Sequence record: NC_054933.1
DNA length: 64,000 nt
Reading direction: 5' to 3' (one strand)
Origin: Escherichia phage teqhad
The notes under the pieces were generated by a model that was not told the DNA's origin, made no database searches, and worked only from the letters and a program-made list of their open reading frames with translations. Both the position numbers and the translations under genes were made by a program. Positions 21,906 through 26,465 of the stretch are shown one piece after another; position 1 is the stretch's first letter, and each line of letters starts with the position of its first letter.

Positions 21906-22196
21906 TTATTTACGGAATGAAATAAAAGCAGCAACTGAAGCAACTAAACTGTCTTCAATATAAACCTCAATTTTTACCGGAGCTTCTGACTCAAATTTAC
22001 CTGTTACTATACCCTGAAAAATACTTTCAGTCTGTTCTGGCTTTGAAAAATTTTCAGAAGGAAAAATTCCGAACTTTTTATCTGTTCCAAAAATTTTAAT
22101 AAATTCATCGTAAACTGCTTCATTAAAAGCATTATCAGCAGGAATAACGCCTTCAACTACAAGTTCTTGACCTAAAAAGCGCAAAGAAGATTTCAT
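21906..22196 (-). CDS. hypothetical protein (alt.-3 position)
   Basis: 96 aa ORF driven by GTTTAC-type early promoter at 22228-22257. Confidence 0.65.
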   Translation of the reverse strand: MKSSLRFLGQELVVEGVIPADNAFNEAVYDEFIKIFGTDKKFGIFPSENFSKPEQTESIFQGIVTGKFESEAPVKIEVYIEDSLVASVAAFISFRK

Positions 22197-22203
22197 TTTG
22201 TGT

Positions 22204-22257
22204 TCCTCATGTTATGCCAGTAAGACTACTATAACACAACACGAGGGACTTGTAAAC
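22204..22257 (-). repeat. 54-bp early promoter/leader repeat, copy A
   Basis: About 92 percent identical to 38018-38071 from promoter through RBS. Confidence 0.7.
22228..22257 (-). promoter_or_regulatory. early promoter GTTTAC-N18-TATAGT
   Basis: Minus strand GTTTACA, 18 nt, TATAGT; drives alt.-3-position ORF. Confidence 0.55.
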
Positions 22258-24314
22258 TACATTTTGAACTTTTTAGACATTCCGTTGATGTTAACCAAAG
22301 AAGCCAAGATTTGAGAAACTTCGTTTTCCTCTTCTTTTGATTCTTCTACAAGGAATTGATTAAATCCAGCCATTGGACGAACTTCACCAGTTTCCATTAG
22401 ATGGTCGCCATCATATACCGATTCCTCTAATTGTTCAGAAGGAGGAACGATTGTACCTTCTATTAGATACTTGTTATAAGCAGTTTCTTTCATAAAGTAC
22501 GTGCTCACTTTATTAATCTTCAGTAAAATTCCACGCGGTAGAATAACTTCAGCTTCTGATGGAAATCCTGATAAATGACCTGGAACGATAACTTTGATTC
22601 GCTCAGCTCCTTTAATTACCATACCCACGCTAGTTTCAGCATCTTCATTAGCATATGTAGAATGACTACCCATATGCATCAAATCTTCTGCATCAACGGA
22701 ACCTTCTCCTTCGCCAGAAAATACTGCGCCGGAATCATCTAGAGCCATATAGTTTTTACCGTGCTCACCGAAAATATTTGGTTTAAGCGATGTGGATACG
22801 AAGTTCTTGAAATAGAACATTTTGTTTTCAATATTATGACGCAAAGTTTTAAAGGTAACTTCTTGTCCACGGTAAAGTGTAGTTCCTGGAGGAAGAACTG
22901 AACCTTTAGCGAATGCAGAATCAAGCGTCTCGATGTGTTTAATAGCTCGTTCCATATATTCTTCACGGGTAGAATCTGGTTTACCCAAAAGGAACGAGTT
23001 CATTTCAACATATGAATCTGCACAATAATCTTCAATTACGTCAGATTCAGCCTGAGTTAATCCTTTTGGAGTTACTTCAGTACTTGCATATTCATATGCC
23101 TGAGCGGCAGATTCATTAATCAATTTATAAATGCCATTCATGACAAATTGAATAATAGCTGTCTTTTCATCTGGCGTAGCTTTAGAACCTTTAGCTAAAT
23201 CATTGACAATTTTCTTAATAACATCAAAACTATTAGAAATATTAATATCAGCAAGATCGCTTAAAATTTTATCAGTTTTATAATCAAAGAATTCTTTATT
23301 CTTTAAATATTCTTGAGAACCTTGATATGTTATATCGCTCTGCAGCTTGATAGATGGATCGCGTAAACGTGCATGGGCCAATGCAATATGATTTCGGAAG
23401 TTTTCTAGTTCATAATCGTTAGATTTAAAACGAGAAGCACTTCTCATACCACCGATAGCTCCTTTGCTAAAGTTTGAACCAATCTGAATAACGCCAGAGT
23501 TCATCGGACCTTCTGCTTTATATACCGGAACTTTAGATTCAAACTCTTGATATTTCTTAGCAGCGAAGCTATCACCCTGAAGTGAAGCATCAACAGTAGA
23601 ATATTGAGCTTGTGCTGCTAATCGACGACTAATTTTAGTTTTCTGAATAACAGCTTGATCCGTGCGCTTATCATTTTCTAAAGCAATAGAAGCAGCAACA
23701 GCGACAGCTTTAGGAACAGCATTACCTGTTTTAACGTCTACATAAACATCACCAACCTTTGATTCAACTTTTGTGAATAACTCAGTTGAAATAGGAGGTA
23801 CACCTGGAATGTCTTCTAAATTGGCATTTTTACGGTAAACCATAATATATGCATATTTCTTATCATAGTCCCAGATTTCCTTTAAAAGAACATATCGACC
23901 TGCTCCTTTAGTACGTACTAAACGGTCAGCAATAACTTGCATTTGACGAGCTGCGCCATTTGTTTTACTTTTTAGTACGCGGAATAGGCATGCGTCGATT
24001 TTATACTGTTTCATTGTTTGAAGAGCAGTATCAAAAACAGCATTAATGACGCCAATTGGATTTCCACCCAAGTTTCTAAGCTTGACTAACGATAATTTCT
24101 CGTTGACACCTATCATTACGATATGCATCATTTTGTCGCCTGGCTTAACGTTTTTATTTGTATCACCGCCAGAGGTGTATGTACAAAATCTAAATCCAGG
24201 AAGAACGCTTTCTTCACCGGCTTGAATAGCAAAAATTTGTGGTATTTTATGCTTAGGATTTAAGTTAACAACCGGCGCCGAAGCGCCGTCAAATAATTCT
24301 GTAATAAGTTCCAT
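22257..24314 (-). CDS. Alt-like ADP-ribosyltransferase paralog (alt.-2 position)
   Basis: 685 aa; N-terminus MELITELFD..NLNPK.KIPQIF shared with Alt; C-terminal R (LYRGQ), STS (FVSTSL) and E (SEAEVILPRG) ART-type motifs. Confidence 0.8.
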   Translation of the reverse strand: MELITELFDGASAPVVNLNPKHKIPQIFAIQAGEESVLPGFRFCTYTSGGDTNKNVKPGDKMMHIVMIGVNEKLSLVKLRNLGGNPIGVINAVFDTALQTMKQYKIDACLFRVLKSKTNGAARQMQVIADRLVRTKGAGRYVLLKEIWDYDKKYAYIMVYRKNANLEDIPGVPPISTELFTKVESKVGDVYVDVKTGNAVPKAVAVAASIALENDKRTDQAVIQKTKISRRLAAQAQYSTVDASLQGDSFAAKKYQEFESKVPVYKAEGPMNSGVIQIGSNFSKGAIGGMRSASRFKSNDYELENFRNHIALAHARLRDPSIKLQSDITYQGSQEYLKNKEFFDYKTDKILSDLADINISNSFDVIKKIVNDLAKGSKATPDEKTAIIQFVMNGIYKLINESAAQAYEYASTEVTPKGLTQAESDVIEDYCADSYVEMNSFLLGKPDSTREEYMERAIKHIETLDSAFAKGSVLPPGTTLYRGQEVTFKTLRHNIENKMFYFKNFVSTSLKPNIFGEHGKNYMALDDSGAVFSGEGEGSVDAEDLMHMGSHSTYANEDAETSVGMVIKGAERIKVIVPGHLSGFPSEAEVILPRGILLKINKVSTYFMKETAYNKYLIEGTIVPPSEQLEESVYDGDHLMETGEVRPMAGFNQFLVEESKEEENEVSQILASLVNINGMSKKFKM

Positions 24315-24317
24315 GAT

Positions 24318-26411
24318 TTATCCTTGAACGAACTTGTAAGGCATGTTTGTAATATCTATGCAAGACGCAATAATTCCAAGAGATGATTCTACTTTCTGTT
24401 TAACGTTTGATGAAACAAATGATGCAAAGTCAACTCTGTCTTCTATTTCAATATCACCTGTCATTGCAACCAATTCACCAGTTTCCATTAAATGGTCTCC
24501 ATCATAGATTACCGATTCGGTGAGCTCTTCCGTGGTCATAACTTCAGCTTGAATGAGTTTTGTATTATTAGATGTTGTTCCGTCATTATTAGAAGCATCA
24601 GTTATTTTATTAACTTTGACCATCAATCCACGCGGTAGAATAACTTCAGCTTCTGTTGCTATTCCGAGACTTCCTGGATATACAACATTAACTTTATGAG
24701 CTCCATCAATTGCCCATCCTATTTGAACTTTAACGTATTCAGGATTTTCTTTATACGCTCTTATTTCGTTTGGATTAATAGTTATTCCTTCTTCATTTTT
24801 ATCAACTGTTAATTCATTGCGAGCTTCTGGTTCTAAAAGACCAATACCAGCATGTGTAATTCCAAAACGTCCAAAAATGATAGGAGTTAAAGAAGTAGAT
24901 ACAAAATTTCTGAAGTAGAACACTTTATTTTTAACTAGTGCTTCGTATATAGGAGCAGTCATACTTTGAGCACGATAAACTGTAATGCCTTCTGGTATAC
25001 GGTCACCATTTTCAAAAGCTGAATCTAAGTTATTTATAGCAGATTCAATTTCTTTTTCACTCATTACATCATATCGTTCTGGATTGTAACGACCTAAAAG
25101 AAGATTATTAATGTCAGTATATCCTGAACCACAATATTCTCTAATACCTCTCTTTTGTGATGGAGTATATTTAGAACCATCACGAGCGATTGTAATATCA
25201 ATCATAGGACCAGCTCCTACGCCAGAGAAACTGTATATCATTCGTTTGAGGAATTTAGTTTTTGCTGCGTTCCAGGAATTTTTAGTTATTTCTTCCCAGA
25301 CTTCATCTGGTTGTCCTTTACGATTTTTATTATGATTAGCAAGCCATTTATCTTTATAATCTTCAAAGAATTGATTTACAGCTGCTGCGTATTTCTCTAA
25401 ACATTTTATTGAAGTAGTTGGTTCATTTTTAATTGCATTAAAAATTACTTCTTTAATTTTTTCTGAAACTTCACCGACTTGACTCATTGGAAAGAATTTA
25501 TAATCATAGTGAAGTTCATCTGCCGTTCCTTCAGCAATAATTTTTGCTGCCTTTGTTTTAGAAGCTAATGAATTAATTCCAATTTTCATTTCTTCTGCTT
25601 CGGGAATTAAAGGTGCAGTAGCTGGTTTATTAAAATTAGCTGCTGTAGATTCATACTTCTGGAATAATTCACTTTCAAATCTAGAAGATTCCAATGACTG
25701 GCTTTGTGCAATTGCTCTACGGGAAATTTTAACTTTAACGATTACAGCTTGGTCAGAACGTTTATCATTTTCTTGTGCAATAGATGCTGCAATTGCCTCA
25801 TTTTTGGTTACTTGGGCTCCAGTATCTTTATTGATATAAACATCACCGACTTTCGATTCAACTTTAGTAAAGAGCTCGGTACTAATTTCCGGAACTCCTG
25901 GAATGTCTTCTAGTGATACATTTTTACGATGTATAAGAATATATGCATACTTTTTATCGTAATCCCAGAGTTCCTTAAGAAGGACGTATCTGCCACCTGA
26001 ACGACTACGGATAAGTCTATCAGCAATAACTTGAATTTGTCGAGCTTGACCAGCGGTTTTAGACTTAAGAATACGAAGCATACAAGCATCAATTTTATAT
26101 TGACGCATTGTTTGCATTGCAACAGTAAAAACTGAATTGATATAATTAATTGGGCTTGGACCAAGACCTTTTAATTTAGCAATTGAACCTTTAGCAGTTA
26201 ATGTAAAAGGAACGATATGCATCATTTTATCGCCCATTTTTAAATCGCGATTAGTATCACCTCCAGATGTATACGTGCATAAACGAAAGCCTGGTTGTTC
26301 AATTGCATCATCAACATGAACTGAAAAAATTTGTGGTATTTTCTTCTTTGGATTTAAGTTTGTAATCGGAAGAGTAGTATCTTCGTCAAATAATTCTGTA
26401 ATGAGTTCCAT
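24318..26411 (-). CDS. alt: Alt, head-packaged ADP-ribosyltransferase
   Basis: about 697 aa from second ATG (GAGGA upstream); R (VYRAQ), STS, E (TEAEVILPRG) motifs; late promoter on minus strand at 26435-26442. Confidence 0.88.
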   Translation of the reverse strand: MELITELFDEDTTLPITNLNPKKKIPQIFSVHVDDAIEQPGFRLCTYTSGGDTNRDLKMGDKMMHIVPFTLTAKGSIAKLKGLGPSPINYINSVFTVAMQTMRQYKIDACMLRILKSKTAGQARQIQVIADRLIRSRSGGRYVLLKELWDYDKKYAYILIHRKNVSLEDIPGVPEISTELFTKVESKVGDVYINKDTGAQVTKNEAIAASIAQENDKRSDQAVIVKVKISRRAIAQSQSLESSRFESELFQKYESTAANFNKPATAPLIPEAEEMKIGINSLASKTKAAKIIAEGTADELHYDYKFFPMSQVGEVSEKIKEVIFNAIKNEPTTSIKCLEKYAAAVNQFFEDYKDKWLANHNKNRKGQPDEVWEEITKNSWNAAKTKFLKRMIYSFSGVGAGPMIDITIARDGSKYTPSQKRGIREYCGSGYTDINNLLLGRYNPERYDVMSEKEIESAINNLDSAFENGDRIPEGITVYRAQSMTAPIYEALVKNKVFYFRNFVSTSLTPIIFGRFGITHAGIGLLEPEARNELTVDKNEEGITINPNEIRAYKENPEYVKVQIGWAIDGAHKVNVVYPGSLGIATEAEVILPRGLMVKVNKITDASNNDGTTSNNTKLIQAEVMTTEELTESVIYDGDHLMETGELVAMTGDIEIEDRVDFASFVSSNVKQKVESSLGIIASCIDITNMPYKFVQG

Positions 26412-26434
26412 CATATCCTCTCTAGTGTTTATTC

Positions 26435-26442
26435 TATTTATA
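26435..26442 (-). promoter_or_regulatory. late promoter TATAAATA for alt
   Basis: Reverse-complement TATAAATA 24 nt upstream of alt start. Confidence 0.6.
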
Positions 26443-26447
26443 AAATT

Positions 26448-26465
26448 AAAGGCCCGAAGGCCTTT
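26448..26465 (-). terminator. stem-loop upstream of alt late promoter
   Basis: AAAGGCC-CGAA-GGCCTTT. Confidence 0.55.

Follow-up and report, generated by a model that had tools for sequence, protein, structure and literature searches.

The window analysed here, a stretch of 64,000 nucleotides from Escherichia phage teqhad (sequence record NC_054933.1), is that of a T4-like phage, and the pair of genes alt and Alt2 is intact within it. We consider it probable that this pair represents the ancestral form of the alt operon in T-even phages, its two genes encoding two arginine-specific mono-ADP-ribosyltransferases (mono-ARTs) which would be packaged together, injected into the host and differ in their substrate ranges. 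The pair as such is already known, as it is catalogued in hundreds of phage genomes. A literature search revealed no paper combining "Alt2", ADP-ribosyltransferase and phage, and none that tested Alt2 by proteomics, biochemistry or genetics.

Two Full-Length Members of the Alt Family

There are only two minus-strand open reading frames listed at the locus, and they are exactly those of the original prediction (two tandem frames of 685 and about 697 aa, 3 nt apart):

24318..26414, minus strand: alt (ORF-B), 698 aa (first ATG) or 697 aa (second ATG, 26411)
22257..24314, minus strand: Alt2 (ORF-A; also alt.-2, alt.-1 or altb), 685 aa

The alt frame opens with ATGATG, and its start is probably the second ATG, at 26411, because this gives MELITE as at the T4 start and a better Shine-Dalgarno spacing. 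The gap from alt to Alt2 is contained in TAA ATC ATG. All of the motifs that had been quoted for the two proteins (MELITELFD, NLNPK.KIPQIF, CTYTSGGDTN, GDKMMHIV, KQYKIDAC and WDYDKKYAY) are present, as are the quoted ART motifs (LYRGQ/VYRAQ, FVSTSL and SEAEVILPRG/TEAEVILPRG). The two proteins are 41% identical over their full length (BLASTP, E=4e-163), so that their resemblance is not due to chance. The family phrog_802 (Alt-like RNA polymerase ADP-ribosyltransferase) covers both from end to end (Alt2 1-685, E=1.6e-256; Alt 1-696, E=3.4e-273), matches to Pfam PF03496 are significant for both (Alt2, 5.7e-20; Alt, 9.7e-38), and PF03496 and PF26846 are precomputed on the database clusters nearest to Alt2. 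Judged by these matches, both are full-length Alt-family proteins. The locus lies between gene 54/alt.-3 and alt.1/gene 30, in the same order in the window, T4, T2, T6, JS98 and RB68.

Putative Signals for Joint Expression

The following signals flank the pair:

26448..26465, minus strand: terminator-like, G+C-rich hairpin AAAGGCCTTCGGGCCTTT, a reading of the sequence only
26435..26442, minus strand: T4-type late promoter box TATAAATA, exact match, 21 nt upstream of the alt start codons
22228..22256, minus strand: early-promoter-like site (TTTACA, 17-nt spacer, TG, TATAGT), a consensus match only (10/12)

The late promoters of T4 have the sequence TATAAATA and, given this established knowledge and its position, the box is likely to be the promoter for both alt and Alt2. 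The hairpin, which is absent from the list produced by a consensus terminator scan, shares bases with the stop codon of the alt.1 homolog, and the late promoter follows it directly. Between alt and Alt2, neither reading of the sequence nor the same scan revealed a terminator. A Shine-Dalgarno sequence (AAGGA) lies 6 nt upstream of the Alt2 start, within the end of alt. The upstream late promoter box, the uninterrupted junction, the 3-nt gap and the AAGGA together argue for co-expression, in which a single late promoter would give a bicistronic message for Alt and Alt2. The early-promoter-like site comes directly after the Alt2 stop codon and precedes the alt.-3 homolog (21906-22196).

Domain Architecture of Alt and Alt2

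The domains assigned to the two proteins are:

26394-26411, minus strand: N-propeptide of Alt, MELITE, 6 aa, with the ITE-6 motif
25704..26393, minus strand: N-terminal alpha/beta domain of Alt, aa 7-236 (AF2 pLDDT ~70-89)
25158..25703, minus strand: variable helical middle of Alt, aa ~237-418, T2/T6-type allele
24516..25157, minus strand: ART catalytic domain of Alt, aa ~419-632, with R480, S505-T506-S507 and E587-x-E589, ending at LTE-632
24321..24515, minus strand: C-terminal propeptide of Alt, aa 633-697, with YDGDHLMETGE and terminal KF
24297-24314, minus strand: N-propeptide of Alt2, MELITE, E6 invariant in the family
23610..24296, minus strand: N-terminal alpha/beta domain of Alt2, aa 7-235, 68% identical to that of Alt
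23070..23609, minus strand: helical middle of Alt2, aa 236-415, no detectable sequence similarity to that of Alt
22422..23069, minus strand: ART catalytic domain of Alt2, aa 416-631, with R482, S507-T508-S509 and E587-x-E589, ending at LEE-631
22260..22421, minus strand: C-terminal propeptide-like tail of Alt2, aa 632-685, with YDGDHLMETGE and terminal KF

Alignments and AF2 models (pLDDT 73 for both, i.e., moderate confidence) show the same predicted layout in the two proteins: a propeptide of six residues, a conserved alpha/beta N-domain, a variable helical middle, an ART of the C3/VIP2 type with R-S-ExE, and a C-propeptide of about 55-65 residues. Identity is about 68% over the first 235 aa, about 17% over the middle (approximately 180 aa) and about 39% over the C-terminal ART. 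An Alt-type pair with a common N-terminus, as originally predicted, is thus what phrog_802 and the pairwise alignment describe, with the high identity ending at about residue 235 rather than at WDYDKKYAY.

The middles had been predicted to be about 250 aa in length and unrelated. The lack of detectable similarity stands (17% identity, hhalign probability 0.6%), but the length is about 180 aa (236-415), and "unrelated" is too strong, as both middles are predicted to form about six helices in the same succession and position (AF2, by comparison of the helices). The Alt2 model aligns over 439 columns, with a TM of 0.68 (target-normalised), to that half of a distant split Alt which comprises the middle and the ART. 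In view of the common helix run and this structural alignment, the models make a fast-diverged homologous domain more likely than an unrelated insertion.

In an alignment of 18 family sequences, R482, S507, S509, E587 and E589 (Alt2 numbering) are invariant, and the R, S-T-S and E-x-E of the two paralogs occupy the same columns, in keeping with the claim that both catalytic centres are intact. The retention of these residues, together with a dN/dS of 0.03 in the ART segment, argues against Alt2 being a pseudo-enzyme. Structure comparison showed that the ART folds of both proteins resemble Vis, C3 and VIP2; Foldseek matches for the Alt2 ART were Vis, Certhrax, CDTa, C3bot and VIP2, with E down to 5e-8.

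The prohead protease gp21 cleaves T4 Alt at ITE-6 and LTE-619, removing a C-terminal propeptide of 63 aa (PMC5694885). At the positions mapped from T4 there are predicted gp21 motifs in Alt2 (ITE-6, LEE-631) and in Alt (ITE-6, LTE-632). Neither cleavage glutamate (E6 or E631) varies within the family, and Y634, D635, G636, D637, E641, G643, E644, K682 and F683 in the Alt2 tail are likewise invariant. The (L/I)xE motif is common (seven in Alt2, 11 in Alt), and the case for cleavage by gp21 is therefore one of positional conservation, not of the motif itself.

The First Gene Has a Swapped Central Part Relative to T4 alt

The first gene is identified by its sequence as alt, the ortholog of the gene for T4 Alt (gpAlt, NP_049811); its product is 97% identical to Alt of T2/T6 and 71% identical to that of T4. 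It shares with T4 Alt an N-domain of 100% amino acid identity, a C-propeptide 95% identical to the 63-aa one of T4, the ITE and LTE cleavage motifs, the R/STS/ExE residues and the locus. It differs in its central 380 residues (middle and ART), which are those of another allele: the middle is 33-36% and the ART 69-77% identical to T4, whereas the flanks are 95-100% identical. At the nucleotide level, identity to T4 falls from 94-99% to 41-58% in the central part, which thus reads as a swapped allele relative to T4. The middle of Alt is polymorphic (tblastn of the segment: 318 records at >=80% identity, 436 at <60%). Mokosh type I defence is reported to be relieved by T4 Alt and not by Bas37 Alt (10.1101/2025.11.20.689424), which implies that Alt alleles differ in function.

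Alt2 in Other Phages and Its Loss from T4

The question of whether the second copy had already been catalogued has a clear answer: it is alt.-2 in RB68 and RB14/32/51, alt.-1 in T2, altb in JS98, and "ADP-ribosyltransferase Alt2" in the BASEL phages Bas35, Bas37 and Bas39-43. Duplications of alt have been noted (PMC1524935, PMC4177764), and the T4 record treats alt.-1/alt.-2 as having arisen long ago by duplication of the beginning of alt. The pair is present in T2 and in T6, and the Alt2 of the window is 99% identical to their second genes and to Bas35 Alt2. Segments specific to Alt2 occur at >=90% identity in about 400 phage records. Its middle hardly varies between records (400 at >=90% identity, 44 at <60%) and, among 1.84 billion representative proteins, has a single match, which is weak and of repeat-motif type. 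JS98 altb is 48% identical to Alt2; altb pairs with Alt2 and alta with Alt (48% vs 32%), implying that the duplication predates the split between Tequatrovirus and Dhakavirus.

In T4, alt.-1 (NP_049810) and alt.-2 (NP_049809) correspond to the first ~115 codons of Alt2 with 95% nucleotide identity, against only 68% between T4 alt and Alt2. Likewise, phrog_23015 fits Alt2 aa 1-56 better (E=2e-40, vs 1e-21 for Alt), and phrog_15247 fits Alt2 aa 62-117 better (E=1e-37, vs 2e-19 for Alt). By these comparisons, Alt2 is the intact form of the decayed alt.-1/alt.-2 gene of T4, directly upstream of alt.-3. Whereas Alt2 is intact here, the second gene of T4 has a 1-nt deletion in a run of A and a 1.69-kb deletion, the ends of which correspond to a direct repeat:

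23967..23975, minus strand: 9-nt direct repeat CTAAAAAGT, upstream copy, left end of the T4 deletion
22268..22276, minus strand: 9-nt direct repeat CTAAAAAGT, downstream copy, right end of the T4 deletion

The alignment indicates that T4 lost most of Alt2 through this deletion between the two CTAAAAAGT repeats. Phage PST has an Alt/Alt2 chimera and has lost the body of Alt. T4 thrives without Alt2, and PST with the chimera only; thus, neither gene is individually required.

Relationship to Other ADP-Ribosyltransferases

T4 Alt, an internal head protein and NAD+--arginine ADP-ribosyltransferase, is present in about 40 copies in the mature head and is injected with the DNA, its classic target being Arg265 of the RNA polymerase alpha subunit. 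Two further T4 enzymes, ModA and ModB, are single-domain proteins of about 200 aa, which are made early, are not head proteins, are encoded elsewhere in the genome, and lack the Alt N-domain and the propeptides. They and Alt fall into one R-S-E clade (Alt/VIP2 and Mod families; PMC5512222, PMC9503650). The C3-like and VIP2/iota/CDTa-type mono-ADP-ribosyltransferases (PF03496, ADPrib_exo_Tox; including Vibrio Vis) have R, S-T-S and E-x-E in common with the phage proteins, at a sequence identity of 15-23%. However, these toxins are secreted, whereas Alt-type proteins are delivered from the phage head and have, in addition, the Alt-specific N-domain, the helical middle and two propeptides. With T4 Alt, Alt2 has the whole architecture in common, at 41% identity. 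T4 Alt is the member of the family which has been tested for NAD-dependent ADP-ribosylation of host proteins (PMC11404850).

Proposed Function of Alt2

By analogy with T4 Alt, Alt and Alt2 would be assembled into the core of the prohead, lose both termini to gp21, travel in the head and be injected along with the DNA, and would then mono-ADP-ribosylate arginines of host proteins; Alt2 is thus inferred to be packaged, processed, injected and active in the same way. The main differences between the paralogs fall in the helical middle, in the insert that separates STS from ExE, and in the loop preceding ExE. As these are parts expected to choose substrates, Alt and Alt2 most likely modify different sets of host proteins, which may overlap.

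Alt2 could instead be a redundant copy of Alt with the same targets (e.g. Arg265 of RNA polymerase alpha), kept for dosage or as a backup. The fold, the ExE arginine-type motif and the packaging signals are alike in the two proteins, and each gene has proved dispensable in some lineage (T4 for Alt2, PST for the body of Alt). This is nevertheless unlikely: the paralogs have been distinct since before the Tequatrovirus/Dhakavirus split, their ART domains are just 39% identical and their middles lack detectable similarity, strong purifying selection acts on each sequence separately (dN/dS 0.03-0.05), and even the N-domains, at 68%, bear no sign of recent gene conversion. Nor is their tolerance of transposons equal in Bas37, which has the same arrangement: saturation reached 116 of 164 sites in Alt2 ("Intermediate") and 164 of 179 in Alt ("Non-essential") (10.1101/2025.11.20.689424 supplement). 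It is very improbable that the downstream frame is a decaying pseudogene here, as it is in T4, where frameshifted and deleted fragments are all that remain of it. In the window, this reading is refuted by 685 uninterrupted codons, by the 99% identity to the T2, T6 and Bas35 copies, and by the excess of synonymous (58-92) over non-synonymous (8-18) differences between phages.

The lower tolerance of insertions in Alt2, seen in a laboratory host without special defences, could also be explained by a structural role. Alt2 would then be a late but non-injected protein, acting in the producing cell or as part of the prohead core, with its activity secondary or absent. Alt itself has been described as a component of the core in addition to being an enzyme (PMC11404850), and no proteomics reporting Alt2 in virions was found in the searchable literature. 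However, the catalytic residues are invariant under strong constraint, conservation extends to both cleavage positions and the C-terminal propeptide, and T4 heads assemble normally without Alt2 (in part established knowledge of T4), so that we regard a non-injected Alt2 as less probable still than a redundant one. The insertion data could also mean that truncated products are toxic or that neighbouring genes are affected, and need not stem from loss of Alt2 function.

A Possible Effector Locus with Two Slots

A broader proposal, to which we give a little less than even weight, is that alt is a two-slot effector locus, in which the conserved N-domain and C-propeptide would serve as handles for packaging and recombination and the middle-plus-ART cassette would be exchanged between phages. 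The first slot (alt) is polymorphic, with T4-type, T2/T6-type and other alleles, and reports on it include at least one anti-defence activity (against Mokosh type I) that is specific to certain alleles. The second (Alt2) is nearly monomorphic and would provide a distinct injected activity, aimed at another host target or defence system. If this is true, a whole injected ADP-ribosyltransferase of the T-even phages would have been missed through fifty years of work on T4, T4 having lost Alt2.

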